A stretch of 27,718 bases of DNA from Oscillospiraceae bacterium (GCA_015064885.1 SVRJ01000030.1:1-27718); one strand, 5' to 3'. Positions 8,636-27,718 are shown, counted from the stretch's first letter. A program made the numbers and translations. Notes: generated by a model not told the origin, from the letters alone.

Positions 8636-9769
8636 TTAATATTGTTTACGGTACGGAAGAAATGCGTTTATGGTCGCATCCTCGCTTACTTTAAATATCA
8701 GCTCTCCGTTTTCTGTGACTTCATTTCCGATAATATCTATCTGACGCTTTCCAAATGCGGAATACCCGTACCAAAGATCCTTATTATCAACAACGTCGTT
8801 TACAGTCATATCGGTTATAAAGTACTTTTGTACCTTTACGAAGGATGCACCCGCGGTCGCATATCCTCCGGGCTGGGTAAGCTTTGAGAGAAATGCTCTT
8901 ACCATATTCATACCGAAATGCTCGATATTCATATTCTGATCTTCGGTGTAACCGTTATAAAGAAGCATCTGCTTAACGCTTTCACCGTCAAGAGTCTGCT
9001 GACCCGCGTTGAAGCTGAAGTTGATTCCGTCCTCAAGACTTGTCTGCGACATATTAACAGAAAGATTTGTATCAATACCTTCTATTTCATCAACAAGATC
9101 ATCAACGTATTCCGAATGCAAAAGAACGTATCTGTCCGGACGTATTCCGGTTATTGAATGAACCGAATTGACTACTCCTTCTATTCCGCTACGGTAAAAG
9201 ACGTCACGCATGAGCAGTCTTTCATTTCCGTAATTTACAAGAGTGTTTGCGGGGAATGAGGTGAAGGTAAACTGTTTGTTCTCCTTATCCATACGAACAA
9301 GCAACGTCACGTCATTATGTACGGTTCTGTACGTGTTTTCTTCAAGTCCTCCGATTATATTCGGGGATCCGTCAAAAGATGTATCTTCACTTCCCTCCTC
9401 GGGAGGAAGAGGAAGACCTGAAACGTTATCCGGAGACGGTGAGACATCGTTTGGGAAGGGCGTTGCACCCGCAACACCTATACTGTTCTTAAGATACGAA
9501 TAATCATAGTCACCGTAGAAAGACGGTCTGTAGTCGGTTATGACCACCAATATGTAGAGAGAATTGCCTTCTATCTTAGTATTAAGAGCGGGGGGCAATG
9601 TAACCTCGTCATCTTCGGGCTCGGTTTCCGCGCTTCCGAACGGGTCAACGATAAATGCTCCGCCGATACTGTTTACAACGATGGCAACTACAAGAAAAGC
9701 CACAACACCAAAGGAGGCGAATGCTATTGCAAAAGAAATCAAAAAATTCTTAACTGTAGAAAACAACAA
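8636..9769 (-). CDS. LytR-CpsA-Psr (LCP)-like membrane-anchored protein, divergent
   Basis: TTG start. N-terminal TM helix, then an LCP-like core ('TLLVRMDKENKQFTFTSFPANTLV', 'ITGIRPDRYVLLHSEYVDDLVDEIEGIDTNLSV') with a Pro/Ser/Asp-rich insert. The family assignment is from recalled LCP patterns, not a search. Confidence 0.4.
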   Translation of the reverse strand: MLFSTVKNFLISFAIAFASFGVVAFLVVAIVVNSIGGAFIVDPFGSAETEPEDDEVTLPPALNTKIEGNSLYILVVITDYRPSFYGDYDYSYLKNSIGVAGATPFPNDVSPSPDNVSGLPLPPEEGSEDTSFDGSPNIIGGLEENTYRTVHNDVTLLVRMDKENKQFTFTSFPANTLVNYGNERLLMRDVFYRSGIEGVVNSVHSITGIRPDRYVLLHSEYVDDLVDEIEGIDTNLSVNMSQTSLEDGINFSFNAGQQTLDGESVKQMLLYNGYTEDQNMNIEHFGMNMVRAFLSKLTQPGGYATAGASFVKVQKYFITDMTVNDVVDNKDLWYGYSAFGKRQIDIIGNEVTENGELIFKVSEDATINAFLPYRKQY

Positions 9770-9921: not shown

Positions 9922-9937
9922 AATGATCGGTTTTATA

Positions 9938-13799: not shown

Positions 13800-14504
13800 T
13801 CAACCGCCAAGATAAGCCTTCTTTATCTCGGGGCTTTCGGAAAGCTCCTTGCCTGTTCCGCTGAGAACTATTCTGCCCGATTCAAGCACGTATGCTCTGT
13901 CAGATATCTTAAGAGCCTTACCTGCATTCTGCTCAACGAGAAGGATAGTAGTTCCTATACTGTGGAGGTCCTTTATGATACTGAATATCTGATCGACAAG
14001 GATCGGAGAAAGTCCCATAGAAGGCTCATCAAGCATAAGCAGCTTGGGGTGGCTCATTATAGCACGACCCATAGCAAGCATCTGCTGCTCACCGCCCGAA
14101 AGGGTTCCGGCAACCTGAGATTTTCTTTCTTTAAGTCTCGGGAAGAGATCATAGACACGCTCTATATCTTCCTTTAAAACTTTATTCATCGAAAATGCAC
14201 CCATCTCAAGATTCTCAAGAACTGTCATTTGTAAAAATACGTGTCTTCCCTCCGGAACGTGAGCAATTCCGTATTTTATAAGCTTATGGGGCTCGAGATG
14301 AGAAATATCCTTTTCATCAAATGTTATAGAACCGGTAGTCGAGCGAAGAAGACCCGAAACGGTATGAAGAGTAGTTGTTTTTCCCGCACCGTTGGCACCG
14401 ATAAGAGAAACGATCTCTCCGGTATTGACCTCAAAAGAAACGTCTCTTATTGCGTGTATTTTTCCGTAATACACATTAAGATTGTCAACTTTAAGCATTT
14501 TCAT
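13800..14504 (-). CDS. livF: Branched-chain amino acid ABC transporter ATP-binding protein LivF
   Basis: Walker A 'GANGAGKTT', 'LSGGEQQMLA' signature and the LivF-type C-terminus. The start ATG at 14504 overlaps the livG stop, with RBS AAAGGAAG. An ATG at 14519 is an alternative. Confidence 0.88.
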   Translation of the reverse strand: MKMLKVDNLNVYYGKIHAIRDVSFEVNTGEIVSLIGANGAGKTTTLHTVSGLLRSTTGSITFDEKDISHLEPHKLIKYGIAHVPEGRHVFLQMTVLENLEMGAFSMNKVLKEDIERVYDLFPRLKERKSQVAGTLSGGEQQMLAMGRAIMSHPKLLMLDEPSMGLSPILVDQIFSIIKDLHSIGTTILLVEQNAGKALKISDRAYVLESGRIVLSGTGKELSESPEIKKAYLGG

Positions 14505-15345
14505 CTTCCTTTCTGCCAAGGTATGCTTCGATAACTTTATCGTTATTCTTTATATCTTCCGGAGTTCCTTTTGCAATTATCTTACCGAAATTAAGTACGG
14601 CGATACCCTCACAAAGTCCCATTACGAGGTTCATATCATGCTCTATAAGAACGATAGCTATCTGGAATTCGTCTCTTATCTTACGGATATTATCCATAAG
14701 TTCGGATGTCTCGGAGGGGTTCATTCCCGCCGCAGGCTCGTCGAGAAGAAGCACCTTGGGATTGGTTGCCAAGGCTCTGAGGATCTCAAGTCGTCTCTGC
14801 GCACCGTAGGGGAGGTTACCCGCCTCGACCTTAGCGAGGTCCTGCATATCGAATATCTTGAGAAGATCGTATGCTCGCTCTGTGGCTTCCCTTTCACTTC
14901 TTCTGTATCTGGGTGTATGGAAAAGCGAGTCAAAAAGATTTTCGCTTATAGAATTTCCGAGTCCGACCTTAACGTTATCTATAACGCTCATATTATTGAA
15001 AAGGCGAATGTTCTGGAACGTTCTTGCGATACCCATTCTGTTGACCTCGCTGGGAAGCTTACCTGCGGTAGACTTTCCATCGAGGAGTATCGCGCCGCGG
15101 GTGGGCTGGTATACGTTGGTGAGAAGGTTAAATACAGTCGTCTTACCCGCTCCGTTCGGTCCGATAAGACCGGATATCTCTGTCCTTCCTATCGCTATCG
15201 AAAAATCGTCAACTGCACGGAGTCCTCCGAAATCTATACCGAGATTTCGGACATCAAGCACAGGTGGCTTATCTACGTCTCTTTCGGGAAGAAGTATATT
15301 TGGTGGAGGAGCAACCATTTTTGTCTTTGGATATTCTTTATTCAT
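14491..15345 (-). CDS. livG: Branched-chain amino acid ABC transporter ATP-binding protein LivG
   Basis: 'GPNGAGKTT' and 'LPYGAQRRLEI', 284 aa, with the LivG-specific N-terminal extension. Confidence 0.88.
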   Translation of the reverse strand: MNKEYPKTKMVAPPPNILLPERDVDKPPVLDVRNLGIDFGGLRAVDDFSIAIGRTEISGLIGPNGAGKTTVFNLLTNVYQPTRGAILLDGKSTAGKLPSEVNRMGIARTFQNIRLFNNMSVIDNVKVGLGNSISENLFDSLFHTPRYRRSEREATERAYDLLKIFDMQDLAKVEAGNLPYGAQRRLEILRALATNPKVLLLDEPAAGMNPSETSELMDNIRKIRDEFQIAIVLIEHDMNLVMGLCEGIAVLNFGKIIAKGTPEDIKNNDKVIEAYLGRKEDENA

Positions 15346-16405
15346 TTGCGCTTCCCTCCTTTACCTTTTTCTTTTCCGCTACCCTTTTTTTCGCCTCTGC
15401 CATCAAGTTCTTTACACTGAATCTTTCTCTTATTGCAATAAGCTTGGGAGAAGCATTAAAGAGCATAAGAAGGATGAGAAGTATAGAATAGATAAGCATT
15501 CTGTAGTCCTGGAGATCTCTGAGCATTTCGGGGAGGATTATCATTATTATAGCTGCAATAACAGATCCTCTTACACTTCCAAGTCCGCCGAGAACAACGA
15601 TAACGAGTATTTCAATAGACATATTGAAATCGAATTTAGCCGCTTTGATAATAGAGAGGCTATGGCCCCAAATAACTCCCGCAATTCCTGCGATAAAAGC
15701 AGCGAGCGCAAATACCATAAGCTTATAGTACGTTATCTTTATACCTGTAGCGTCGGCGGCTATTCTGTTATCTCTGACAGCGGTTATTGCGCGTCCGTGC
15801 TTACTTTTAGCAAGGTTTATAATAAGTATTACCGATACTATAACCGCAACGGCTGCAAAGGGGAGAAGATTCTTCGGGGTCTCATAAATAGGCTCTGTAT
15901 CGTATCCTATCGCTCCTCCCGTAAAATCAAGATTGATTATAACGTTCTTTATTATCTCACCGAAAGCAAGAGTAACTATCGCAAGGTAGTCACCGTTAAG
16001 TCTGAGTACGGGGATACCGATAATTATTCCGAAAACAGCCGCAATGATACCTCCGAACAGCATAGCGATCGGAAGACGTACATAAAGGGGTATCTGCGGG
16101 AATTTTTCAAGTATAGCTACAGACAACATGCTTCCCGAGTATGCTCCCACCGACATAAACGCAGCGTGACCGAGTGAAAGTTCACCAAGAAATCCTACGA
16201 CAAGGTTAAGCGAAACGGAAAGCAAAATATAGCAAGAAAGTGTAATTACCATATTAAGCATCTGTCTGCTTGCACTTCCGCTGTAGATCATTGCGGAATA
16301 TACTGCATAGAATACAATTACTATGTAGATCGTAACGGCGTCACGCGAGATGAGTTTTTTTATCTTGCTTTCACCAAGAAGGTTATTATTTTTCTTTTCG
16401 CCCAT
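15338..16405 (-). CDS. livM: Branched-chain amino acid ABC transporter permease LivM
   Basis: 355-aa polytopic permease with 'GELSLGHAAF'. Overlaps the livG start. Confidence 0.85.
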   Translation of the reverse strand: MGEKKNNNLLGESKIKKLISRDAVTIYIVIVFYAVYSAMIYSGSASRQMLNMVITLSCYILLSVSLNLVVGFLGELSLGHAAFMSVGAYSGSMLSVAILEKFPQIPLYVRLPIAMLFGGIIAAVFGIIIGIPVLRLNGDYLAIVTLAFGEIIKNVIINLDFTGGAIGYDTEPIYETPKNLLPFAAVAVIVSVILIINLAKSKHGRAITAVRDNRIAADATGIKITYYKLMVFALAAFIAGIAGVIWGHSLSIIKAAKFDFNMSIEILVIVVLGGLGSVRGSVIAAIIMIILPEMLRDLQDYRMLIYSILLILLMLFNASPKLIAIRERFSVKNLMAEAKKRVAEKKKVKEGSANE

Positions 16406-16408
16406 AAC

Positions 16409-17302
16409 TCACACCTTCTCATTGATTTTCTTACCGAGCAATCCGGTAGGCTTAATAACGAGTACGAGAATAAGTACTCCGAAAACTATAGCGTCTGTAA
16501 ACTGTGTTGATATGTACGCCATAGAAAGCTTTTCAATAACGCCGAGCATAATTCCTCCGAGCATTGCTCCGGGAACAGAACCGATTCCTCCGAACACGGC
16601 GGCGGTAAACGCCTTGATACCGGGCATTGAACCTGTTGTCGGCTTAATATACGTATAGGACATACCGTAACAAAGGCTCGCAAATGCGGCAAGTGCAGAG
16701 CCTATTGCAAACGTTATTGAAATAGTTCTGTTAACGTTGATTCCCATCAGCATAGCTGCGTCTTTATCTTCTGAGACCGCACGCATAGCCTTACCGAGCT
16801 TTGTCTTGTTTATAAATAAAGTCAGGGCTATCATAAGCACGACGGTAATACCGAGTGTAAAGAGGGTCTCGCCGGAAACCGTTATCTTGTCACCGATATG
16901 AAGGGGCGGAAGATTGAAAAGAGTAGGGATACTCTTAGGATCCGATTTGAAAATAAGCAGTGCAAGATTCTGAAGGAAATAGCTGACACCTATTGCGGTT
17001 ATAAGAACCGAAAGTGAGGGCGCACGTCTGAGAGGCTTATATGCCAAAAATTCTATAATTATACCGAGGAGTGCGGAAAAAATGATGCTTATCACAATTC
17101 CGAGTATCGACGGACATTTTCCAAGCGCAACAGTTGTATAGATCATATACGCGCCGACCATAATTACATCGCCATGCGCGAAATTAAGCATTTTAGCTAT
17201 ACCGTAAACCATGGTATAACCGAGAGCTATAAGTGCATATATACTGCCAAGGCTTAATCCTTGTATCAGTGTTACAATCAAATTCGTCACTTTGAACACC
17301 AC
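16409..17302 (-). CDS. livH: Branched-chain amino acid ABC transporter permease LivH
   Basis: GTG start. 'GSIYALIALGYTMVYGI..NFAHGD' matches the LivH N-terminus. Confidence 0.85.
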   Translation of the reverse strand: MVFKVTNLIVTLIQGLSLGSIYALIALGYTMVYGIAKMLNFAHGDVIMVGAYMIYTTVALGKCPSILGIVISIIFSALLGIIIEFLAYKPLRRAPSLSVLITAIGVSYFLQNLALLIFKSDPKSIPTLFNLPPLHIGDKITVSGETLFTLGITVVLMIALTLFINKTKLGKAMRAVSEDKDAAMLMGINVNRTISITFAIGSALAAFASLCYGMSYTYIKPTTGSMPGIKAFTAAVFGGIGSVPGAMLGGIMLGVIEKLSMAYISTQFTDAIVFGVLILVLVIKPTGLLGKKINEKV

Positions 17303-17477
17303 GACATTTCTCTACGTGAAATGTCCTTTCAAAAAATAATCAAAATTTTCGGTTAAGCGTTTTGCATTTATGCAAATACGCATATTTTATAAATATGATA
17401 ATAACACCTACACGCACCGAGCCCAAGGGCGCGGTGCGCGTAACGTGTAAATAAGTAAATTAAACTAATTGCAGAAA

Positions 17478-18665
17478 TCAGTCAACAACTACAGTCTTGC
17501 CGTTTACGATCTTAAGGATCATAGGCTCTTTAACTGTTTCACCGTCTGCTGTCCACTTCATTGTTCCGGTTGCGCCCGTAACCTCGATTTGGGTCATAGC
17601 TGCTATCATTTTTGCATTGAAGTCTTCGATCGACATAGTAACAACGTTATCAGCGTTAAGTCCGCCCTTTGTAAGAGCTGCAACTATAGTATAAATGCAG
17701 TCATAAGCGTCTGCAGCGAACTGGTCGGGAGTCTTACCGTACTTAGCCTTATAAGCGTCAACAAATGTCTTTGCAACGCCTTCCTGGCTGTCAGCATAGA
17801 AAGGAGTGAGGAGGAGAACGCCTTCAGCGTCTGCTACGTTGTCACCGCACTTTTCGATAAGACCGTCAAGACCGTCTGCTCCGAACCATTCGATATCGAG
17901 AGACATCTGAGCAGCCTGACGGAGGATCTTAGCAGCGTCAGCCGCATAGATCGGGAAAAATACGAGCTCAGCGCCGCTATTCTTGATAGCTGTAAGCTGT
18001 GTTGTAAAGTCTGTGTTTGTAGACTCTGTATACGTCTGCTCTGTAACGATAGTAATACCGAGAGCTGCTGCCTTTGTCTTAAACGTATCAACGTTACCTA
18101 CGCAGTAGTCATTTCCGTTATCATAAAGAATAGCTACCTTTGTTGCAAGGTTCTTATTCTTTATTGTATTAGCTGCGATCTCTCCCTGCTGAGGGTCGTT
18201 AAAGCAAAGTCTGAACGCGTTGGGTTCGCCTATGGAGTCAAGAGCGGATGCGGAGGGAGTGAGGATAAGAAGTCCGTCATTCTTAGCAGCCGCAACGATA
18301 TCCTTGTTCTCACCGGAAAGAGTACCGCCGAGAGATACCTTCATGCCGTCGTCAATGAGCTTACCGTAGCCCTGAACAGCCTTTTCACCGCTTCCGCCGG
18401 AGTCAGCTTCGAGGAGCTTGAGCTCAAATCCGTTGACGCCGCCTTTTGCATTTATCTCTTCAACTGCAAGCTTAGCGCCGTCTCTTACCGAGATACCGTA
18501 GTTAGCATATTCGCCTGTAAGGGGACCAGTGAAGCCGATCTCAAGGATAACCTTACCGTCTTCTGTTGTCTTCCATACATCGTTCTTCTTGCCGCAGCTT
18601 GCGAAGCAAAGTGCTGTCATGACAAGAACTAATGTGATCGCCAAAATCTTCTTTGTTGCTTTCAT
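17478..18665 (-). CDS. Branched-chain amino acid ABC transporter substrate-binding lipoprotein (LivJ/K-like)
   Basis: Lipoprotein signal MKATKKILAITLVLVMTALCFASC. Type-I periplasmic-binding fold motifs ('GPLTGEYANYG', 'ILYDNGNDYCVG'). Confidence 0.85.
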   Translation of the reverse strand: MKATKKILAITLVLVMTALCFASCGKKNDVWKTTEDGKVILEIGFTGPLTGEYANYGISVRDGAKLAVEEINAKGGVNGFELKLLEADSGGSGEKAVQGYGKLIDDGMKVSLGGTLSGENKDIVAAAKNDGLLILTPSASALDSIGEPNAFRLCFNDPQQGEIAANTIKNKNLATKVAILYDNGNDYCVGNVDTFKTKAAALGITIVTEQTYTESTNTDFTTQLTAIKNSGAELVFFPIYAADAAKILRQAAQMSLDIEWFGADGLDGLIEKCGDNVADAEGVLLLTPFYADSQEGVAKTFVDAYKAKYGKTPDQFAADAYDCIYTIVAALTKGGLNADNVVTMSIEDFNAKMIAAMTQIEVTGATGTMKWTADGETVKEPMILKIVNGKTVVVD

Positions 18666-18801
18666 CTGTAAACAACCTCCTTTAATAATTTCGATTTATG
18701 CGAAAATGCGTGTAACACACGCTTACAAATTTTAAAGCCTCTACGGCATGCAATCCGCGAAAGATTGCAACCGCACAACCTTCAAAATTTATTTGTATTA
18801 T

Positions 18802-18830
18802 ATTTTATCACATAACAAAGATTTTGTCAA
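18802..18830 (-). promoter_or_regulatory. Sigma-A promoter TTGACA-17-TAAAAT for the liv operon
   Basis: Minus-strand reading TTGACAaaatctttgttatgtgaTAAAAT, with a ~135-nt structured leader before livJ. Confidence 0.55.
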
Positions 18831-18916
18831 GGGTTATTACAAACAAAAATGAATAATTACTCAAAAAATATTTCAAATAAATGTTACAAAAACTAAAGTA
18901 ACATTCTAAAAGTATA

Positions 18917-19264
18917 TCATCCCTGTAATCCAAACGACACAGCGATAGCATTGTTTATTTCGCTCATAGATTCATCGTCAAGGTGGCCCATCTTTTCCTT
19001 GAGCCGCTGCTTATCTATAGTTCTTACCTGCTCGAGCAAAACGACAGAGTCCTTGGAAAGCCCTACCTTATCCGCATAAAGATCTATATGTGTAGGAAGC
19101 TTGGCTTTTTCCATACGCGAGGTTATTGCTGCCGCTATTACCGTGGGACTGTACTTATTTCCCACGTCATTCTGGATTATCAGAACGGGACGGAGACCTC
19201 CCTGTTCAGATCCCACCACGGGACTGAGATCCGCATAATAAATATCTCCTCTTTTTATGTTCAT
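18917..19264 (-). CDS. ndoA: Type II toxin EndoA/MazF-family mRNA interferase (PemK superfamily)
   Basis: '[58 protein letters not shown]' is near-identical in pattern to B. subtilis EndoA (YdcE). RBS GGAGGAA. Confidence 0.9.
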
Positions 19265-19365
19265 CTTTGTTCCTCCGGAAAACTGTATTCCGAAGTTATT
19301 TTTTACAGAGCAAACGCATTTTAAACATTGATAGAAAAAGTTAATAGTTTATTTCAAAAAAAATC

Positions 19366-19398
19366 TTACCAAAACAATATTTAGATGATATAATCTAA
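19366..19398 (+). promoter_or_regulatory. Promoter (TTACCA-17-TGaTATAAT) with the -10 embedded in palindrome TTAGAT-N6-ATCTAA
   Basis: Extended -10 at 19386-19394. Inverted repeat TTAGATgatataATCTAA at 19381-19398, 28 nt upstream of the ATG at 19426. Confidence 0.4.
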
Positions 19399-19425
19399 CT
19401 AAGTAAAAAGCAAAGGGGGATATTC

Positions 19426-20268
19426 ATGCTTATTTCATCAAATTCCGGACTTCACAGCGGACGGGTCGGAAAAGAACGTTATACTATGTTTGAGGCACTT
19501 GACTTTTTCCACGAGGTAGGGTTTGAAGCCTTTGATATAAATTTCTGCGCTACAATATACGGAGTTGGAGACTCCAAAAAGCAGCGTGAATACATTCTTG
19601 ACGGAGACTGGCAAAAAAACGTTTACGATATAGGAAACAAGGCTGCCGCCCTCGGAATAGCAATAAACACATCTCATCTTCCCTTCTTCAAGTACGCAAG
19701 CAAAGAAAGCCTTCCTTTGTACGACTATTATCAGGAAATGGTCTTCCGCTCTATGGAGGCAGACGCTATGCTCGGGGTAAAGTGGACTGTCGTTCATATG
19801 ACACACGACCCACAGAGCACTGCCGATTACGTTCGGGAGCTTTGCGAATATGCGACACCGAAGAAACTCGGCATTGCTATTGAGAATACCACGATCCCGG
19901 TAGAGCCGCTTTGTGAGGCTATAGATATCCTTAAAGGCGAGGGATATCTCGTAGGTGCATGCTATGACACCGGACACGCCAACGTTGCGGGACTTGATCA
20001 GCGAGAGGCTATCACTACCCTCGGAAACAGGCTCAAGATGCTTCACGTACATGACAACTTCGGTAAAGATCAACATCAAGCTCCTTTCTGCGGTCAAATA
20101 GATTGGAATGACGTCATGGAAGGTCTTGCCGCAATAAACTATACGGGAGATTTCAATTACGAAGTAAATCCTGCAAAGATTCCGGAATGTGCAAGAAAAG
20201 ATTATGCACGTTATCTTATTGAAGTTGCGAAGCATCTCTTTACAATATACGACAAAGCCCGTTTGTAA
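19426..20268 (+). CDS. Sugar phosphate isomerase/epimerase (xylose-isomerase-like TIM barrel)
   Basis: 280 aa with 'VVHMTHD', 'IENT', 'CYDTGHANV' and 'LHVHDN' metal-binding pattern of the AP-endonuclease-2/xylose-isomerase-like fold. RBS AAAGGGGGA. Confidence 0.7.
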   Translation: MLISSNSGLHSGRVGKERYTMFEALDFFHEVGFEAFDINFCATIYGVGDSKKQREYILDGDWQKNVYDIGNKAAALGIAINTSHLPFFKYASKESLPLYDYYQEMVFRSMEADAMLGVKWTVVHMTHDPQSTADYVRELCEYATPKKLGIAIENTTIPVEPLCEAIDILKGEGYLVGACYDTGHANVAGLDQREAITTLGNRLKMLHVHDNFGKDQHQAPFCGQIDWNDVMEGLAAINYTGDFNYEVNPAKIPECARKDYARYLIEVAKHLFTIYDKARL

Positions 20269-20273
20269 ACAAT

Positions 20274-20320
20274 AAAAAGCATATCCTACACCTACAGGTT
20301 GGGATATGCTTTTTATTTTG
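20274..20320. terminator. Bidirectional terminator between convergent genes
   Basis: AAAAAGCATATCC / GGATATGCTTTTT stem with a 15-nt loop, flanked by A-run and T-run. Confidence 0.6.
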
Positions 20321-20323
20321 TGA

Positions 20324-21166
20324 TCAGTCGGAAACGGTTACCCATTCACCGGGACATGCTTCGGCCTTCATCACCGCATCGTGTATTCTCATTACCTCGA
20401 GGGATTCCTCGACGTCAAACGACACCGTACCGGAATCGAAGAATCTTACGATATCCTTTGTAAGCTCTACAAAAAAATCCGACTTGATCGATCTGTGCAT
20501 TGCCTTTCCGTCATACCCTTCAGCAGTTACACCATATGGCATTGAAGGAACGTAAAGCAGAGTAGCCGTCTTTCCTCCGTCAGCCTCTATGCGACATACA
20601 CGCTGGCTTCCGCTTATATCGAGTCTGACCTTACGCGCGTGTGAAGCAAGAAGCTTAACCGCGATCTCGGCCTGGTGAACGATATATTCGTGAAAGAGTG
20701 CGACAGTTCCCGCAACGGTCAGGTGTTTAACGTCCGTAAAGTCGCAAAGCTCGGTAGAGTATCTGAGTGAGGAAGAACTGAAAAATGGTGTTCCGTATTT
20801 TTTCGAAAGATCGAATATTTCTTTTGCCTCTTCATATGAAGAAGTAAAGGTCTTATCGATATATACACATTTCCCGAACGGGAAAACACGCCTTGCGTAT
20901 TCAATATGCTTTTCAGAATTATCCGGAGCAAGTATCATAACGGCATCACTTTTTTCACAGACCTCCTCAATGGTGGCACACTTATGAGCAGCGTATTTTT
21001 CACACCATTCGTCTGTGGTAGTACCGTAAACGGGAGAGCTGTCTATCTCAGCCCAAACGTATTCTACCTTATATTTTGCAGATATCTTCTCCAGCCATAT
21101 CGGGTAGTTGTTGGCGTGCCATTCACCGACATAATAATCAATTATACCTATCTTTTTCATATTCAA
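20324..21166 (-). CDS. Divergent Gfo/Idh/MocA-like protein lacking the canonical GxGxxG
   Basis: N-terminus 'KKIGIIDYYVGEWHANNY' sits where the Rossmann motif should be. The central 'CVYIDKTFTSSYEEAKEIFDLSKKYGTPF' resembles the Gfo/Idh/MocA EKP region. 4-nt overlap with the upstream canonical paralog. Confidence 0.4.
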   Translation of the reverse strand: MNMKKIGIIDYYVGEWHANNYPIWLEKISAKYKVEYVWAEIDSSPVYGTTTDEWCEKYAAHKCATIEEVCEKSDAVMILAPDNSEKHIEYARRVFPFGKCVYIDKTFTSSYEEAKEIFDLSKKYGTPFFSSSSLRYSTELCDFTDVKHLTVAGTVALFHEYIVHQAEIAVKLLASHARKVRLDISGSQRVCRIEADGGKTATLLYVPSMPYGVTAEGYDGKAMHRSIKSDFFVELTKDIVRFFDSGTVSFDVEESLEVMRIHDAVMKAEACPGEWVTVSD

Positions 21167-22227
21167 AAGGTAACCTCTGTGCCCTTTTCAGCGGACGCAT
21201 AGAGAGCATCAAGGAGTTTTGCGCTTTCAAGAATATTATCTATATGGCTTCTGTTCTTAACTCCGCTCTGTACAGATTCGATGAACGCACGGCTCTCGCA
21301 GAGGTACATATTAGGAATATCGTATTCCGGATATGTAGTAGTGAGAGTTTCACCGTCAAAGAATTCAAACTTCTTTCCGTAGATAAGTCTTGCTCCTCCC
21401 TTGTCTCCAAGGAAATCTATAAACATTTCGTCTCTTCCGACGTTCTGCGCCCAAGCGCCGTTAAAGGAGATTCCTGCCTTATCGGTACGGATATATCCCG
21501 AAACAAACTCTTCAACGTCGTTAACTCCGTTAACAGTATCTGAGGTATCCTCCGCCCACATCGATTTATATTTGTAGCTTTGCATATCCTTCGCAAGCTC
21601 TGAATAAGTGTCACAGGTAAGTGTTTTGATCTGTGCACTTCCAAGTATATAGAGAATAAGATCAAAGAAATGGATTCCCCAATCTATGAGCACGCCGCCA
21701 CCGGAAAGCTCCTTGGTAGTAAAGGATCCGCCGAGTCCGGGTATTGAGCGGTGACTTCTGAACGAGCAGTAAACATGATAAAGCTTACCGAACTTTCCTT
21801 CTCTGTTCATCTCCTCAAGCATTTCAACGCTCTTATGGTATCTGTTACATACGCCTATATTGAGAATCTTTCCGGATTCCTCAGCCTGCTTTGCCATCTC
21901 GCATGAAAGCTCATAGTTTACTGTTATAGGCTTCTCGCAGAAAACGTGCTTGCCTGCTTTAAGTGCATCCATAGTAATGGTATAGTGCGAATAATTGGGG
22001 GTTATAACGTATACAGCTTCAACCTCGGGATCTGCAAGAGCGACCTTATAATCCTCTATAGCATATTTTATATTCGGATATTTTTCTTTTATCGCCTGAG
22101 CCTTTTCGGGAATAATATCGCATACGTACTTTATATCGATAATATCATCCATCTGTGCAAATGCGGGAAAATGAGCATGGCCTGCTATTCTTCCGCAGCC
22201 TATTACGGCTATAACGGTTTTTTTCAT
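21163..22227 (-). CDS. Gfo/Idh/MocA family NAD(P)-dependent oxidoreductase
   Basis: 'IAVIGCGRIAGHAH', 'FCEKPITVN', 354 aa. RBS AAAGGA. Confidence 0.85.
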   Translation of the reverse strand: MKKTVIAVIGCGRIAGHAHFPAFAQMDDIIDIKYVCDIIPEKAQAIKEKYPNIKYAIEDYKVALADPEVEAVYVITPNYSHYTITMDALKAGKHVFCEKPITVNYELSCEMAKQAEESGKILNIGVCNRYHKSVEMLEEMNREGKFGKLYHVYCSFRSHRSIPGLGGSFTTKELSGGGVLIDWGIHFFDLILYILGSAQIKTLTCDTYSELAKDMQSYKYKSMWAEDTSDTVNGVNDVEEFVSGYIRTDKAGISFNGAWAQNVGRDEMFIDFLGDKGGARLIYGKKFEFFDGETLTTTYPEYDIPNMYLCESRAFIESVQSGVKNRSHIDNILESAKLLDALYASAEKGTEVTF

Positions 22228-22258
22228 AACTTTTATCCTTTCAATATACGTTAATTGA

Positions 22259-22309
22259 TCGAGACATTTATCTCGACGATATTATAACATAAAATCATTC
22301 TAAAGTCAA
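22259..22309 (-). promoter_or_regulatory. Sigma-A promoter TTGACT-17-TGtTATAAT with palindromic operator TCGAGA-N6-TCTCGA over the transcription start
   Basis: -35 at 22304-22309 and -10 at 22281-22286. The perfect inverted repeat at 22259-22276 covers about +1 to +16, 30 nt before the ATG at 22227. Confidence 0.5.
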
Positions 22310-22320
22310 GTAAAAAACAA

Positions 22321-22342
22321 CAAAAAAACAAGGAAGCCGAAG
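22321..22342 (-). terminator. Terminator of secreted protein A gene
   Basis: CAAGGAAGC-cgaa-GCTTCCTTG followed on the minus strand by UUUUUUUGUUGUUUUUU. Confidence 0.75.
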
Positions 22343-22370
22343 CTTCCTTGTTCTATATTTTAATTGATTA

Positions 22371-23423
22371 TCAGTGCTTTCTCTTAGCTGCAACGAAAGC
22401 TGCGCCTGCAAATGCAATGATAACTGCCGCACCGCTTACGATAGAGCCGCAACCTGCTTCGTTCTTGGGAGCTGCTGTTGTAACAGCGGGAGCCTTTGTT
22501 GTTGTAGAGGGAGCGTTAGTAGCTGTGGGAGCCTTTGTTGTTGTAGCGGGAGCCTTTGTTGTTTCCTTGGGAGTTGTGGGAGCTGCTGTTGTCTCCTCGG
22601 GAGCTTCAGGATACTTATATGCCTTGAGAGCTGTTTCGTCAAGGTACTTCTGATAGTAGAAGCCTGCGTAGTTAAGACGAGGACCGTTGCCTGTATTCAT
22701 TATGCCGTCTGCACTGTTGTACTCGAGGTGGTAGTACTCGAATGTGTGCTCACCTGCTGTAAGGTCAGCTGTGATGTTGTATACACAACCCATCTGATAG
22801 AATTCATATGTCTTGTTAGCAACTGCCTTCTGAGCATCTTCTACAGAGTATACGTAGTTATAACCCTGAAGGAATACAAGCGGAGAATTGGAGATGTTTA
22901 CCTGATACTTCTGACCACCGTCGATTGAGTAAGAGAATCCTCTTTCCTTTTCGGGCTTGCCAACGTTTTCAGCCTTGATCTCTGCACAACCGATAACTAC
23001 GAATTCGTACTTACCCGCTTCGGGAACTGTGAACTTATAAACGGCCTTAGCTGTGGAACCGTCTTCAGCATTGTTCTGCCAGATAGCAGGATACATAAAT
23101 ACGCCTTCATCGATGAAGTGAACGTCAAACTGGATCTGATCCTTGTAGAGTTTCTTATCAAACTTCTGGACCTCGATAGTACGTGTGCCGGAGCCGGGAG
23201 CCTTACCTACGGAAGCAGTAAGATCATACTCGGAAGCATACACGAACTTTGCATCGTCACGGATAATGGGAGTACCGTTCACATACATATCAACAACAGT
23301 CGAGAACTTAACGTTTGCTGTTATATCAATAGCTGTGCATCCCTCCGGAATTGCAGATGTTGATATGGACAGAGCCGAGAACAACATTGCGATCGTAAGA
23401 ATTAAAACAAGTGCCTTTTTCAT
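22371..23423 (-). CDS. Secreted protein A: signal peptide, unknown ~270-aa domain, Thr/Pro/Ala-rich linker, C-terminal 'GCGS'-TM-KRKH anchor
   Basis: Start ATG at 23423 with AGGAGG 8 nt upstream. The track ORF start at 23495 has no RBS. Signal 'MKKALVLILTIAMLFSALSISTSA'. Linker 'TTAAPTTPKETTKAPATTTKAPTATNAPSTTTKAPAVTTAAP'. Tail 'AGCGSIVSGAAVIIAFAGAAFVAAKRKH'. Confidence 0.7.
   Translation of the reverse strand: MKKALVLILTIAMLFSALSISTSAIPEGCTAIDITANVKFSTVVDMYVNGTPIIRDDAKFVYASEYDLTASVGKAPGSGTRTIEVQKFDKKLYKDQIQFDVHFIDEGVFMYPAIWQNNAEDGSTAKAVYKFTVPEAGKYEFVVIGCAEIKAENVGKPEKERGFSYSIDGGQKYQVNISNSPLVFLQGYNYVYSVEDAQKAVANKTYEFYQMGCVYNITADLTAGEHTFEYYHLEYNSADGIMNTGNGPRLNYAGFYYQKYLDETALKAYKYPEAPEETTAAPTTPKETTKAPATTTKAPTATNAPSTTTKAPAVTTAAPKNEAGCGSIVSGAAVIIAFAGAAFVAAKRKH
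22440..22620. repeat. Imperfect tandem ~21-nt repeats (GGGAGCCTTTGTTGTTGTAG-like) encoding the TTKAP linker
   Basis: At least four consecutive near-identical units are visible in the DNA. Confidence 0.6.
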
Positions 23424-23604
23424 TGAAATTTCCTCCTGAAAAATATTAAACTGTGTTCTTACACGCACAGTTATTATGCTATTATTATAGCACACTTCTA
23501 TATTTTTGTCAACCGATTTACAAGCAAAAAAAATTAAATTCTACTTATTATACATATTTTAATAGTAATTTTTGTGCACTTTCACAACAAAAATCGTCTA
23601 AAAA

Positions 23605-23626
23605 GCAGCCCTCCTTTAAGAGGGCT
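23605..23626 (-). terminator. Weak-to-moderate terminator after the flotillin gene
   Basis: 7-bp stem AGCCCTC/GAGGGCT with a 6-nt loop. On the minus strand it is followed by UUUUUAGACGAUUUUUG. Confidence 0.45.
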
Positions 23627-23633
23627 ACAAATA

Positions 23634-25022
23634 TTACTCGTTTTCGGAAGCTGCGGGAGCTTCTTCAACCTTTTTTCCGAGCATTTCGGGAAGCTGCATA
23701 CCTGCAAGCGCGAATACCTCTTCAAGAGGGGGAACAGACTTCATCATGCCGGAGAGGAATCCTGCCGTAGCATTCTTTCCATCCGAATTCTGACCGTTAT
23801 CCCAAACGGTTACCTTGTCTATCTTTATGTTCTTGATAGCATCGACCTGAACACGCATGAGGTCCTCGAGCTTATCTGCGATAAGAAGCTTGAGGGCTGC
23901 TTCCGCATCGCCGCCGGCAGACTTAACGATCTCTGCAAAACCTGCCGCCTGCTTTTTAAGTATCTCTTCCATACCGCGAGCTTCAGCTGCCATCTTTGCG
24001 TAGATAGCGTCAGCTTCACCCTGCGCCTTGCGGCGTATCTGCTCAGCCTCAGCCTCTGCCTCGAGCTCCATCTTTCTCTTCTTAGCTTCTGTCTGAACGA
24101 TAATATCAGCCTCGAGAGTTGCCTGCTCACGCGCACGGCGTGCTTCTTCAGCGGCCTGCTCGGCAGCGTAGGATTCCTCAAGGGCTTTAGCTGCCTGGAT
24201 CTTTTCAGCGGTGGTAGCTATCTTCTGCGCTTCAGCCTCTTTTTCCTTAAGAGCCGCTTCGGACATAGCTATCTTCATCTTTGCTTCGTTTTCACCCTGA
24301 ATAGCTACAGAGTCAGCCTGAGAAACCTTAATACGCTGATCCATATGCGCGTTTGCTTCACCGATAGAACCGTCTCTTTCCTGCTCAGCAACGCTCTTCT
24401 TAGCGTCGTTGATAGCCTTAGCCGCAGCTTCCTTACCGAGAGCTGCAATATATCCGGATTCATCGCTGATATCGGTTACGTTAACGTTGATAAGGCGAAG
24501 ACCGATCTTTTTAAGCTCTGTTTCAACGTTGCTACTTACGGCTGCGAGGAACTTATCGCGGTCTGTATTGATCTCCTCAATGTCCATGGTTGCGATAATA
24601 AGACGGAGCTGACCGAAGATGATATCCTTTGAGAGCTCCTGGATCTCGGAAAGCTGAAGGCCGAGAAGACGCTCTGCCGCATTCTGCATTACGCCGGGCT
24701 CGGTAGAAATACCAACAGTAAAACGAGAAGGAACGTCGATACGGATATTCTGTCTTGAAAGAGCGTTTTTAAGGTCCACCTGGATCGATATGGGAGTAAG
24801 GTCAAGGAAAGCGTATGACTGGAAAACGGGAACTACAAATTCCGCGCCGCCGTGAATACACTTGGCGCTTCTGTTTGTACCGTCCTTATTCTTACCGATA
24901 GAACCGTACACGACCATGATCTTATCTGAGGGGCACTTTTTATATCTTGAGCACGCCCAGATAATAAACGACATAACCACCAGAACGATGGCACACACGA
25001 GAATAACAGTTTCAGATCCCAT
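23634..25022 (-). CDS. floT: Flotillin-like SPFH/band-7 protein (FloT/YuaG-like)
   Basis: N-terminal TM, SPFH domain, long Ala/Glu-rich coiled coil ('AEQAAEEARRAREQATLEADI..EAEAEAEQIRRKAQGEADAIYAKMAAEA') and flotillin C-terminus, 462 aa. Confidence 0.88.
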   Translation of the reverse strand: MGSETVILVCAIVLVVMSFIIWACSRYKKCPSDKIMVVYGSIGKNKDGTNRSAKCIHGGAEFVVPVFQSYAFLDLTPISIQVDLKNALSRQNIRIDVPSRFTVGISTEPGVMQNAAERLLGLQLSEIQELSKDIIFGQLRLIIATMDIEEINTDRDKFLAAVSSNVETELKKIGLRLINVNVTDISDESGYIAALGKEAAAKAINDAKKSVAEQERDGSIGEANAHMDQRIKVSQADSVAIQGENEAKMKIAMSEAALKEKEAEAQKIATTAEKIQAAKALEESYAAEQAAEEARRAREQATLEADIIVQTEAKKRKMELEAEAEAEQIRRKAQGEADAIYAKMAAEARGMEEILKKQAAGFAEIVKSAGGDAEAALKLLIADKLEDLMRVQVDAIKNIKIDKVTVWDNGQNSDGKNATAGFLSGMMKSVPPLEEVFALAGMQLPEMLGKKVEEAPAASENE

Positions 25023-25062
25023 AATAATACCTCCGATATAAATTTTGTTTCTGAATTGTTTT

Positions 25063-25668
25063 TTACTTGCGCTTGACTACAAGCGTTGTCTGTCCGCTGA
25101 GGCCGATAACAACGATCTCACAACCTGTAGGTATAGGCTCTCCCTCATCGGTCACCGCATCACGCTCAACATAGGTACCCTGAAGCAGAACGTTGACCTT
25201 TCCCTCCCCCGTACGAGCGGGAGGAACTGTAAGATATACCCTACCCGAAACACCGAGAGCGTTTCGGTTATCAAGATTGCCGTCGTTGCGAAGGCGCATA
25301 ACAGTGCGCATAAGCAAAGCCAGCACAAGCATCATTAAGAATCCGCATACAGCGGCTACGGGAATAGTTATGAGAAGCATAATTCCCGCGCGGTCCATGA
25401 CAAATCCGACCCATCCGAATACTACAAGAAACGCTATAATACCTCTGATCGAGAATATACGCAAAGCATCCATTCCGTCAAGGTCAACGTCAAATTCGGG
25501 ACCGTCGGCGTCTATAGACTCTCCAACTGAAATATCTCCTCCGTCGGCTTCAAGTCCTATTCCCACAAGCATGAGCACCGTCTGTACAAGCAAGACGACC
25601 GTTGCGGGAATTGCAACACATGCAAATATTTGAGACACGAGGCTCAGAGAATCCCACCAAGCAAACAT
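25063..25668 (-). CDS. NfeD-family membrane protein (YuaF-like flotillin partner)
   Basis: Polytopic N-terminus plus a C-terminal OB-fold-like beta domain ('GRVYLTVP..GKVNVLLQGTYVER..GCEIVVIGLSGQTTLVVKR'). GGAGA lies 6 nt before the ATG at 25668. Directly upstream of floT, as in the yuaF-floT arrangement. Confidence 0.7.
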   Translation of the reverse strand: MFAWWDSLSLVSQIFACVAIPATVVLLVQTVLMLVGIGLEADGGDISVGESIDADGPEFDVDLDGMDALRIFSIRGIIAFLVVFGWVGFVMDRAGIMLLITIPVAAVCGFLMMLVLALLMRTVMRLRNDGNLDNRNALGVSGRVYLTVPPARTGEGKVNVLLQGTYVERDAVTDEGEPIPTGCEIVVIGLSGQTTLVVKRK

Positions 25669-25769
25669 AATAATCTCCATTCTGCCGCATTTGCGGCTGC
25701 TTAAAATTTAAAATGATTAAACCAATACGTTACTTTTGTAACAGTAGATAATATGCGGTAGCGTGCAAA

Positions 25770-26324
25770 TTAATTTAATGACGAAAGAATTTCCTCGGCT
25801 GCACTTCTGGATATGCTCGCATAATGAGCGTATGCCATTACCTGAAGGATCTTGACAAGTCTCTGGCGCGCACCCGGTATCGGCTCTACGTAGTTAGCCG
25901 CTACCTGTTCCGCTGCCGTTCTGACAGATTCTCTGTTTGTAACTATACCTCCGGTATGAGAGATAAGCTCAACGTACTTGTGATACAGCTCACTGTCACT
26001 GATAAGGTCGTCGCTCTCATCGTGGAGCCTGCCGTTGATATACGACAGAAGTCCGCATATGCGATCGAGTTGAATAGACTCACGAAGCATATTAATGATA
26101 ACTATACGTGCAAACTGATCGGCACTGTACTGTCTTTTCACCGGCGGTGAAACAAATTCTCTCTTCACCCAGTTCTGTATCATGTAAGGTTCAAGTCCCG
26201 TCATTACCGAAACCTGTGAAAGAGTTATTCCTCCCGCGGCAAAAATGCCTTCAAACAACATCCGCGAGGTATTCTCGGTTATCCCGGAAACTTCTATTGT
26301 CGTACCCGGTAATGTCTTCAGCAT
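25770..26324 (-). CDS. MerR-like HTH protein, possibly DUF1836/YkrK-like regulator
   Basis: 'ITLSQVSVMTGLEPYMIQNWVKREFV' has the MerR-type HTH pattern, 184 aa. Resemblance to the B. subtilis YkrK (htpX repressor) family is from memory and not verified. Confidence 0.45.
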   Translation of the reverse strand: MLKTLPGTTIEVSGITENTSRMLFEGIFAAGGITLSQVSVMTGLEPYMIQNWVKREFVSPPVKRQYSADQFARIVIINMLRESIQLDRICGLLSYINGRLHDESDDLISDSELYHKYVELISHTGGIVTNRESVRTAAEQVAANYVEPIPGARQRLVKILQVMAYAHYASISRSAAEEILSSLN

Positions 26325-26350
26325 TTCACCACCTCCATTTCTGTACTATA

Positions 26351-26379
26351 ATTATACCACACAATCACGTGATTGTAAA
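26351..26379 (-). promoter_or_regulatory. Promoter TTTACA-17-TGgTATAAT with a perfect 16-bp palindrome ACAATCACGTGATTGT (26361-26376) covering the -35/spacer
   Basis: Read directly from the sequence. An additional half-site ATCACG lies at 26390-26396. Confidence 0.6.
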
Positions 26380-26440
26380 TAGGGTGTGCGTGATTTTTAT
26401 ATTTTTTTAACCTTTTGTTTATAATTCAGAAACCTTTATC

Positions 26441-26484
26441 AAAAAATCACCCCCGAAAAGGAGTATAAAGCCTCTTTTCGGGGG
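26441..26484 (-). terminator. Terminator of secreted protein B gene
   Basis: 11-bp stem CCCCCGAAAAG/CTTTTCGGGGG with a 13-nt loop. On the minus strand it is followed by UGAUUUUUUGAU. Confidence 0.75.
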
Positions 26485-26507
26485 ATGTATTTATAGTTTT
26501 AATAGCT

Positions 26508-27644
26508 TTATCTGCGTTTTTTTGCGGTTATAACACCTGCAAGAGAAACGAGAGCAATGAGTGTAAGTCCGCTTGTTACTGCGGAGGAGCAGCCGTTTTT
26601 ATTGTCAGGCGGAGCGGTAGTAGTCTCCGGTGAGACTGTAGTTTCGGGAGTAACGGTAGTCGTTTCGGCTGCCGAAGTAGTCACCGTAGGTGTTGGCGTC
26701 GTAACGACAGGCTTTGTTGTAGTTACGGGGACGGTAGTATTTTTAACTTTGTTAAGGCAGATCAAGCAATCAGACCTCATATCCTTCGCATATGACGGAA
26801 CGTGGTATTTTCCTGTAATATAATCGTCGCCTTTATATATATTAACGTTTTTAACTATGATCGGTTCGTTCTCCCTACCAAAGCTCATATTTACGGTAAA
26901 TCCGAGATCGTTATATCCATCCGTGACAAACGAATAATCGAAATCGAATGAGTCAATAAACTGGTACGAATCACATGATGAAGAATAAGGACCTATAAAA
27001 ACCAAACACGTTCTGTCATATATAACAAGAGCAAGATTGCGGAAAGTGCCGCTTGCAATAATTATAGGCTCGAATTCCGCATAAGAGCTCTCGTTGAACT
27101 TATATTTGCCGGCAATTCTTTTTATCCCCTTTTTCGCGCCAAGGTCGCCGTTCCCACCAAAGCGTCCGTAAACACCGTACAGATTTGAATGGTATCTGTT
27201 ATTCGTCTGCATAGGGTCCTTATCAAGGGCTTCAAGCTTTTCTGCCGTGGGAAAATTAACATATACACCTCCTCTGTGATCGGGAAGCAGAATTTCCATG
27301 GCGATAGTATAAACCTTGCCGTCTCCTAACGTAAGGCCGTCGATATTATCCCCGTACCACAAGCTCATATCTTGAGTACTTGCTTTATGAAGAGCAAGAG
27401 TTCTTCCACCGTCAAGTATAGAAACGATTTCGTCAGGATTCAAATCTTGTCTGTCCGAGGAATGAAACATCTTAGAGGTATAAACTCCGGTCGTCTCACC
27501 GAATTTGACTTCATAAAGGAGGTCGCCGTCCTTTGCATCCTCATACGTAGATATAAGAGTATTAGAAGAGGCCTCTGTGGGAACAAAGCCGAACACAGAC
27601 GCAAGAATAACGAACGTAAGAGCTAAAGACAAAGCTTTCTTCAT
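26508..27644 (-). CDS. Secreted protein B: signal peptide, unknown ~300-aa domain, Thr-rich linker, C-terminal 'GCSS'-TM-KKRR anchor
   Basis: ATG at 27644 with AAAGGAG 8 nt upstream. The longer track ORF start is unlikely. Signal 'MKKALSLALTFVILASVFGFVPTEA'. Linker 'TTVPVTTTKPVVTTPTPTVTTSAAETTTVTPETTVSPETTTAPP'. Tail 'NGCSSAVTSGLTLIALVSLAGVITAKKRR'. Confidence 0.7.
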   Translation of the reverse strand: MKKALSLALTFVILASVFGFVPTEASSNTLISTYEDAKDGDLLYEVKFGETTGVYTSKMFHSSDRQDLNPDEIVSILDGGRTLALHKASTQDMSLWYGDNIDGLTLGDGKVYTIAMEILLPDHRGGVYVNFPTAEKLEALDKDPMQTNNRYHSNLYGVYGRFGGNGDLGAKKGIKRIAGKYKFNESSYAEFEPIIIASGTFRNLALVIYDRTCLVFIGPYSSSCDSYQFIDSFDFDYSFVTDGYNDLGFTVNMSFGRENEPIIVKNVNIYKGDDYITGKYHVPSYAKDMRSDCLICLNKVKNTTVPVTTTKPVVTTPTPTVTTSAAETTTVTPETTVSPETTTAPPDNKNGCSSAVTSGLTLIALVSLAGVITAKKRR

Positions 27645-27681
27645 TGTTTCTTCTCCTTTCATATATGTCTTCTTGTTTTTA

Positions 27682-27710
27682 ATTATAACATAAAAGCATG
27701 TGCTTGTCAA
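27682..27710 (-). promoter_or_regulatory. Sigma-A promoter TTGACA-17-TATAAT for secreted protein B
   Basis: Minus-strand reading TTGACAagcacatgcttttatgtTATAAT, about 30 nt upstream of the RBS. Confidence 0.55.
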
Positions 27711-27718
27711 TAGCACGT

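Follow-up and report, generated by a model that had tools for sequence, protein, structure and literature searches.

The window analysed here, i.e. the whole 27,718-nucleotide stretch of DNA from an Oscillospiraceae bacterium (GCA_015064885.1 SVRJ01000030.1:1-27718), encodes two proteins, A and B, that end in the same short tail, made up of a Gly-Cys motif, a hydrophobic helix and a terminal cluster of Lys and Arg residues. They are the only tail-bearing open reading frames (ORFs) in the window. The host is a metagenome-assembled genome (MAG) of the Oscillospiraceae/Ruminococcaceae, with glycyl-tRNA synthetase MBE6669929.1 and flotillin MBE6669943.1. Both genes lie on the minus strand, and all coordinates below are window positions unless a contig or another locus is named.

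The gene for protein B (378 aa, 26508..27644, placed by the ORF list and translation) encodes, in this order, a signal peptide, a lectin-like domain, a Thr/Pro stalk and the Gly-Cys (GC) tail. It sits in an ORF spanning 26508-27716, of which we took the ATG at 27644 as the functional start, with the strong ribosome-binding site (RBS) AAAGGAGA upstream (27652..27659, 8 nt between GGAG and ATG); gene callers place the start at the ATG at 27662, reading through the RBS. The predicted signal peptide MKKALSLALTFVILASVFGFVPTEA (27570..27644, from translation) contains a helix at residues 2-19 in the AlphaFold2 (AF2) model, and its cleavage was placed by eye after TEA. The globular domain (26742..27569) was modelled with a predicted local distance difference test score (pLDDT) mostly > 90 over residues 30-300 and assigned by Foldseek to the concanavalin-A-like/L-type lectin fold, with the legume lectins 1qnw and 1gz9 (E 2e-7) and the lectin modules of SraP and YwfG as top matches. 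It is followed by a 49-aa Thr/Pro-rich stalk (26595..26741) that is predicted to be disordered (pLDDT < 50 over residues 302-362). The minus strand of 26508-26609 translates to PDNKNGCSSAVTSGLTLIALVSLAGVITAKKRR and a stop codon, i.e. PDNKN-GCSS-AVTSGLTLIALVSLAGVITA-KKRR-stop, the C-terminus of B, where the last 28 residues are the tail, exactly as the original prediction had located and described it. Its signature motif G-C-S-S (Gly351-Cys352) is encoded at 26583..26594, the Gly/Ala/Ser-rich hydrophobic helix AVTSGLTLIALVSLAGVITA at 26523..26582 (overlapped by the AF2 helix 358-377, which extends into the basic cluster), and KKRR with the stop codon at 26508..26522 (translation).

Protein A (350 aa, 22371..23423) is built from a signal peptide, a CBM6/35-like domain, a stalk and the GC tail, and its C-terminus reads KNEAGCGSIVSGAAVIIAFAGAAFVAAKRKH before the stop codon. 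By translation, its tail is GCGS-IVSGAAVIIAFAGAAFVAA-KRKH (22371..22454, stop codon included). The AF2 model of A (pLDDT 80.4) matched best CBM35/CBM6 modules and the GH115 beta-sandwich in Foldseek. The signal peptide of A ends in TSA and that of B in TEA, with no Cys at either end. Each gene has its own promoter, strong RBS and terminator, a claim made from the outset that stood at the level of consensus matching: both promoters read TTGACA-17-(TG)TATAAT, a 12/12 match with an extended -10 element (A, 23484..23512; B, 27682..27710), the RBS of A is AGGAGG (23432-23437), and terminators lie 3' of both stop codons (A, 22325..22354, 13-bp stem and T-run; B, 26441..26484, hairpin CCCCCGAAAAG...CTTTTCGGGGG then T-run), all of them on the minus strand. 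A and B are thus probably expressed as monocistronic units.

Comparison of the two proteins bears out that one C-terminal module sits on unlike globular domains. A BLASTP alignment of A and B was confined to the stalk and the tail (E 7e-5), leaving the globular parts unaligned, and the predicted folds differ (L-type-lectin-like in B, CBM6/35-like in A). When profile hidden Markov models (HMMs) of the tails were searched against the 447 window ORFs, the model of B-family tails found A as its sole other match (E 2.4e-5), and the model of A-family tails found B (E 4.3e-4), with all next matches at E > 0.9; because the two models pick each other this specifically, the resemblance goes beyond chance. 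No similarity was found on alignment between the DNA coding for the A tail and that coding for the B tail, which argues against a remnant of a recent duplication.

Conservation, spread and modularity of the tail

Homologs of A and B were retrieved through their globular domains (28 for B), so that the tail itself was not selected for. The Gly-Cys, the helix and 2-5 terminal K/R residues were kept in all 22 relatives of A (down to ~41% identity) and in 24 of the 25 relatives of B (down to ~32% identity). The distance from the Gly to the C-terminus was constant (25-29 aa in both families), while stalk length varied from 47 to 70 aa in the A family and from 58 to 78 aa in B-type proteins; B relatives of 600 aa have 308-316 aa up to the motif and an extra domain before the stalk. 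The alignment of homologous C-termini proposed by the original prediction therefore gave the expected outcome of an invariant Cys and basic tail behind a stalk of variable length. Orthologs without the Cys, or ending in LPXTG, had been named as evidence to the contrary, and one such protein turned up: P0028, the lone exception among the B relatives, ends in APKTGD-helix-KKRVSVK, an LPXTG-like signal whose score (15.6 bits) falls under the cutoff of 15.9. As this signal occupies the equivalent position, we read it as an argument for functional equivalence of the tail with a surface-anchoring signal and not as a point against the tail.

For a broader view, a 34-position tail profile was searched against 1.84 billion cluster representatives (threshold E <= 1e-3). 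Of its 75 matches, 71 stop no more than 6 residues short of the C-terminus; the proteins concerned measure 47-1462 aa. A set of 143 unique tails follows the pattern [EKD]-[GKS]-G-C-G-S-x-[VI]-x-[GS]-G, then the helix and 2-5 K/R, with D, H or N often as the last residue. Gly and Cys occur in 100% of these tails, which were chosen for having GC, so that the unbiased measure of invariance is that of the globular-domain homologs (22/22 for A and 24/25 for B); position +1 is G in 86% and position +2 is S in 77%. In 141 of the 143 tails the Cys stands 19-23 residues before the first K/R, and in 141 the last eight residues hold 2-5 K/R. Most proteins with the tail have no Pfam domain, and those passenger domains that could be named are diverse (GLUG, GDSL lipase, Big_3, CBM6 and endonuclease I). 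A rough regular-expression screen of the N-termini of 115 full-length tail proteins found 101 to be signal-peptide-like (96) or lipobox-like (5). All named sources are Clostridia (Clostridia MAGs, uncultured Lachnospiraceae and Clostridium sp. CAG:448), and literature searches returned nothing on this tail in Clostridia. Two further searches were made: in a word-indexed protein search a 41-aa stalk-plus-tail profile matched short fragments only (45-76 aa), which said little about taxonomy, and a narrower tail pattern (A5) gave two confirmed loci in genome contigs and three in metagenome contigs. We also observed seven mini-proteins of 68-76 aa in metagenomes (P0153, P0156, P0157, P0161, P0163, P0167 and P0174) in which a lipobox-bearing lipoprotein signal peptide is joined to the GC tail by a short acidic linker of Thr, Pro, Glu and Ala, with nothing else; if both ends were processed, a peptide of ~25 aa lipidated at both ends would result.

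In the source genome the tail is repeated beyond the right end of the window (27718). A JGI contig (L010), 100% identical to window 16508-27718, carries three further B paralogs in tandem (356, 374 and 369 aa, contig positions 6331-9890), all with the GC tail, so that B is the fourth member of an array and this genome has at least five tail genes within ~9 kb. B and the adjacent paralog share 97.5% identity over the first 198 nt of B, which we take as a sign of gene conversion; the 54 nt coding for the B helix are 91-93% identical to two paralogs, and the third is ~79% identical over 75 nt. The stalk DNA of A (22443-22592) is 80-82% identical to the stalks of three B paralogs, their globular domains being unrelated, and we conclude that stalk modules recombine between genes. 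Compared with a sister-strain contig (L001), the window is diverged at 26669-27464, while the flanks, signal peptide and tail included, are 96-99% identical; the two versions of the lectin-like domain share ~54% protein identity, and the domain looks like a replaceable surface cassette. The mosaic DNA and this domain swap together indicate that signal peptide, stalk and tail are exchangeable modules, and that the exposed domain diversifies.

These data also bear on whether the likeness of A and B could be a leftover of local duplication, or a chance resemblance of hydrophobic C-termini, with no signal function. The four-gene tandem B family does share its tail by descent, and to that extent the earlier claim that the tail is no remnant of gene duplication had to be narrowed: it applies between A and B, and within the B family the tail was inherited by tandem duplication. 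Yet the folds of A and B differ, their globular sequences cannot be aligned, each tail HMM specifically recovers the other family's protein, dozens of unrelated proteins in other genomes bear the tail, and each family retains it down to 33-40% identity, all of which leaves this explanation hardly credible. With unrelated passengers, different folds of A and B and dissimilar tail-coding DNA, the view of the tail as a transferable signal was upheld.

Anchoring model and candidate processing enzymes

The tail is very likely a dedicated anchoring or sorting module. Widespread and uncatalogued as it is, it probably serves to hold a wide range of proteins at the cell surface, perhaps by way of a lipid on its Cys. 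Whether it is, more specifically, a modular tripartite C-terminal sorting/anchoring domain of gut and rumen Clostridia (Oscillospiraceae/Ruminococcaceae and Lachnospiraceae), with a lipidated Cys and a helix that is removed, we consider evenly balanced. In the mechanism proposed here, the N-terminal signal peptide would route the protein through Sec, after which the C-terminal helix would stop transfer, with the K/R cluster inside the cell and the Gly-Cys at the outer face of the membrane, and the 50-80-aa Thr/Pro stalk would carry the carbohydrate-binding-like domain through the wall. An Lgt-like diacylglyceryl transferase might then lipidate the Cys thiol, and a CPBP/Rce1-like intramembrane protease might cut the helix off, so that a C-terminal lipid would hold the protein, the outcome being a mirror image of N-terminal lipoprotein maturation. 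The same enzymes would presumably serve A and B in this genome. How gut and rumen Clostridia bind to plant fibre, mucus, phages and one another depends on their surface proteins; most of these Clostridia have yet to be cultured, their proteins carry the annotation 'hypothetical', and a recognisable anchoring signal would make their surface proteomes predictable from sequence.

Candidates for both enzymes lie beside two A homologs. In locus L020 (GCA_016294925.1, 10001-12755) an Lgt-like gene (PF01790) begins 31 nt downstream of the gene for the A homolog P0051 and is overlapped over 11 nt by a CPBP gene (PF02517). In locus L022 (473-3197) the gene for P0044, the closest relative (63% identity), precedes an Lgt-like and a CPBP gene in the same order, with a 4-nt overlap. 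The Lgt-like protein scored 78 bits against the Lgt equivalog cutoff of 118.9; it keeps R143, G154, Y235, R239, E243 and R246 of Escherichia coli Lgt, has the replacements H103Y, N146C and E151C, and carries the motif GR[IL]GCLMAGCCHG. The CPBP of L020 and L022 keeps EExxxR, FxxxH and HxxxD, and among NCBIfam models it comes nearest to MrtJ, the protease of JDVT-CTERM, far below the cutoff. Literature searches found nothing on an Lgt-paralog/CPBP pair. That this pair lipidates and cleaves the tail has, in our judgement, at best an even chance and perhaps somewhat less. A 'mirror-image lipoprotein' pathway of gut and rumen Clostridia, in which a dedicated Lgt paralog translationally coupled to a CPBP would lipidate the Cys and remove the helix, is put forward more tentatively still. 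Canonical Lgt was considered as the enzyme acting on the tail and was rejected, as the residue at -3 to the Cys is charged and the direction of the chain is reversed.

Several points, however, weigh against processing by this pair. L020 and L022 are related (their DNA is 69% identical, the Lgt-like proteins 76% and the CPBPs 75%) and thus amount to about one independent evolutionary observation. The pair occurs in only two of ~10 distinct tail-gene neighbourhoods, a hairpin separates it from the substrate gene in L022, and it did not turn up in the 37 kb of sequence known to surround A and B. The tail-gene neighbourhoods L001, L003-L007, L016, L017 and L021 have neither a protease nor a conserved partner, and when all fetched loci were searched by motif and with phmmer, no CPBP or Lgt-like genes emerged beyond those reported; a lack of candidate enzymes in most neighbourhoods is expected in a many-to-one system. 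The only CPBP seen in the source genome (286 aa, L019 19495-20355, ~9.5 kb to the left of window position 1 and beside yceG/mltG) belongs to a different subfamily. It has the catalytic motifs EEFTFRG, FFGMIHF and HFVFN, among sorting enzymes it matches MrtS best (26.9 bits, cutoff 130), and it was rejected as an ortholog of the L020 enzyme (22% identity). CPBP genes are also widespread in Firmicutes. As a competing reading, the Lgt/CPBP pair could serve ordinary lipoprotein tailoring, just as the CPBP-like LnsB acts on ordinary lipoproteins in Staphylococcus aureus (PMC7387801); LnsB, however, is devoid of the catalytic motifs (PMC7387801).

The main rival to a lipidated and cleaved tail is a permanent, uncleaved type I transmembrane anchor, in which the Gly-Cys would serve, for example, helix capping, packing or reversible modification and which would have spread with the stalk by domain shuffling. 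The topology of the tail is that of any stop-transfer anchor and is explained equally well in this way, a further point against our proposal; stalk modules do recombine, as the 80-82% DNA identity between A and the B paralogs attests, so that shared ancestry could explain some of the conservation, and most neighbourhoods examined are free of a processing enzyme. Generic anchors, on the other hand, do not carry an invariant Gly-Cys, or C-G-S-x-[VI]-x-G-G, across families whose tails are otherwise only ~33% identical; the fixed C-terminal distance, the dispersed multi-copy pattern and the LPXTG-like substitution are hallmarks of enzyme-recognised sorting signals, and the Lgt-like/CPBP pair beside a tail gene would have to be a coincidence. 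On balance we regard a permanent anchor as less likely.

A sorting signal could also be served by another enzyme (a non-canonical sortase, an XrtG-like member of the exosortase family or a rhomboid) that passes the protein on to the cell wall or a polysaccharide. The tripartite design is common to LPXTG, PEP-CTERM, PGF-CTERM and GlyGly-CTERM signals, the tails gave weak, scattered matches to Rumino_NPXTG, LPXTG_anchor, GVDTG_CTERM and PGF_CTERM, the homolog P0028 uses an LPXTG-like signal, and an LCP-family gene lies in the window (8636-9769). We nevertheless find this improbable: the tail has no LPXTG-like, PEP, PGF or Gly-Gly motif, the model matches stay under their cutoffs and cover its helix and basic cluster, the neighbourhoods examined were all free of genes for a sortase, exosortase or rhomboid, and each of the four Cys-type signals known so far has a CPBP protease as its partner (bioRxiv 10.1101/2023.06.07.544157).

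Between A and B lies an apparent operon (23634-25680, minus) of an NfeD-like membrane protein (25063-25680) and a flotillin/Band 7 protein (23634-25022). It was considered as part of the system and rejected, since its adjacency to A homologs is not kept in other MAGs. A DUF1836/MerR-like gene is found at 25770-26324 and a MazF/PemK-family toxin gene at 18917-19264 (minus; Pfam E 8e-38). Long plus-strand ORFs at 9923-12619, 14482-16177, 17469-18632 and 23574-24632 run antisense to the P-type ATPase gene, the Liv transporter genes and the flotillin gene, and, with their Cys/Ser-rich, low-complexity translations, they are almost certainly not genes. No Rfam families were found in the window.

Comparison with known sorting signals

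The proteins A and B, isolated tails (17, then 53) and 51 full tail proteins were scanned against Pfam and NCBIfam (release 20.0). No curated sorting-domain model matched A or B above its cutoff, and A, B and the majority of the examined tail proteins go unflagged in both databases, which leaves an annotation gap. The tails produced scattered sub-threshold matches to Rumino_NPXTG, LPXTG_anchor, GVDTG_CTERM, MYXO-CTERM-anchored families, Synerg-CTERM and PGF-CTERM. In build and occurrence, the tail fits the tripartite class as a whole: proteins with an N-terminal signal peptide finish in a motif, a helix and, at their very C-terminus, a basic cluster, on unrelated passengers (the folds of A and B and the variety of Pfam domains) and in several copies per genome (at least five in ~9 kb). 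For a dedicated processing enzyme, the Lgt-like/CPBP pair in L020 and L022 is the one lead.

LPXTG proteins handled by sortase have the same overall layout of signal peptide, passenger, wall-spanning Thr/Pro stalk, motif, helix and basic tail, and likewise a Gram-positive host, whereas in A and B a Gly-Cys stands in place of the LPXTG-like motif; against the LPXTG model (TIGR01167) the B tail scored 13.8 bits with a cutoff of 15.9, the match being limited to the helix and the basic part. N-terminal lipoproteins offer a different kind of likeness. Read backwards, the tail gives a K/R cluster, a hydrophobic span and [VI]-x-S-G-C, and an Lgt-family gene adjoins the tail gene in L020 and L022; it differs in its C-terminal site, the opposite chain direction and a CPBP partner instead of LspA. 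Neither A nor B has a lipobox ([LVI][ASTVI][GAS]C) at the end of its N-terminal signal peptide, a lipobox-like string appearing only in reverse and at the C-terminus. The motif C-[G]-[S]-x-[VI] is a lipobox in reverse, and the helix and the K/R cluster would mirror the h- and n-regions of a lipoprotein signal peptide, a resemblance that we take as a hint and not as evidence. The 'lipo-invert' model NF058595 (cutoff 37 bits) did not match A, B or any tail; it matched only the mini-proteins P0157, P0156 and P0163, at their N-terminal lipoprotein signals (13.8-20 bits), and literature searches found nothing on 'lipo-invert'. The window also encodes two ordinary lipoproteins, an EEP-family nuclease/phosphatase (5658-6548, plus) and a LivJ-like binding protein (17478-18665, minus), the former with a Thr-rich stalk directly after its lipobox Cys, in mirror arrangement to A and B.

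Four Cys-type signals have been described, each with a CPBP protease: MYXO-CTERM (Myxococcota), JDVT-CTERM (Proteobacteria), Synerg-CTERM (Synergistota) and CGP-CTERM (Thermococcales); Firmicutes, Bacillota and Clostridia go unmentioned in that paper (bioRxiv 10.1101/2023.06.07.544157). The last three resemble the tail in their invariant Cys, helix, basic tail and cognate CPBP protease, and the JDVT-CTERM enzyme adjoins a single target, as in L020 and L022. They differ in motif (DP in JDVT, GP in CGP) and taxonomic range, and no Lgt-like partner is described for them. The models for Synerg-CTERM (TIGR04564), JDVT-CTERM and CGP-CTERM gave no match to A or B, two of the 53 tails reached E ~0.011 on Synerg-CTERM, and the best sorting-enzyme matches of the two CPBPs were MrtJ (23.6 bits, cutoff 75) and, as above, MrtS.

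The MYXO-CTERM signal is likewise tripartite, with an invariant Gly-Cys, a transmembrane helix and a basic C-terminal cluster, and it too follows a disordered linker on many unrelated secreted passengers with many copies per genome. Its models (TIGR03901.2 / TIGR03382.1) are the nearest to A and B; whole A and B gave no match at the reporting threshold and their tails stay below the cutoffs, the best tails reaching E 0.018 and 0.028, weak yet recurrent similarities; a separate subgroup of tails (P0160, P0163 and P0165) narrowly passes TIGR03382 GC_trans_RRR (16.1-16.7 bits vs. 15.85), and JGI labels some of the 45-76-aa tail fragments as GC_trans_RRR. The invariant motif Cys near the C-terminus is common to both. 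The Clostridia tails differ in having a single Cys (GCGS, not GCGC) and Lys instead of Arg. Their hosts are monoderm, so that the MYXO-CTERM step of type II secretion across the outer membrane would be without counterpart, and MYXO-CTERM is by curation confined to Myxococcota (bioRxiv 10.1101/2023.06.07.544157). Orthologs of MrtX/C/P were not found, and the CPBPs fall far below the Mrt cutoffs (14.7 bits on Mrt_core for the one beside the tail gene, cutoff 100). In the working model for MYXO-CTERM, the Cys is lipidated, with Lgt suggested for this step, and CPBP cleavage follows (PMC11980579; bioRxiv 10.1101/2023.06.07.544157). Cleavage by MrtX has been shown experimentally, while Cys lipidation is proposed, with Lgt as the leading candidate (PMC11980579).

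Our best reading of the tail is thus that it adds a Gram-positive variant to the Cys-type tripartite C-terminal sorting signals. For these signals the protease is known (the CPBP myxosortase) and the Cys-modifying enzyme has only been guessed to be Lgt (PMC11980579), and a tail gene followed by a divergent Lgt and an overlapping CPBP offers a compact three-gene system in which to test this guess. If the mirror-image pathway is real, Gram-positive envelopes would hold C-terminally lipid-anchored surface proteins, as the first Cys-type sorting system in monoderms, and the long-missing class of lipidating enzymes would be named for all Cys-type signals, MYXO-CTERM included.

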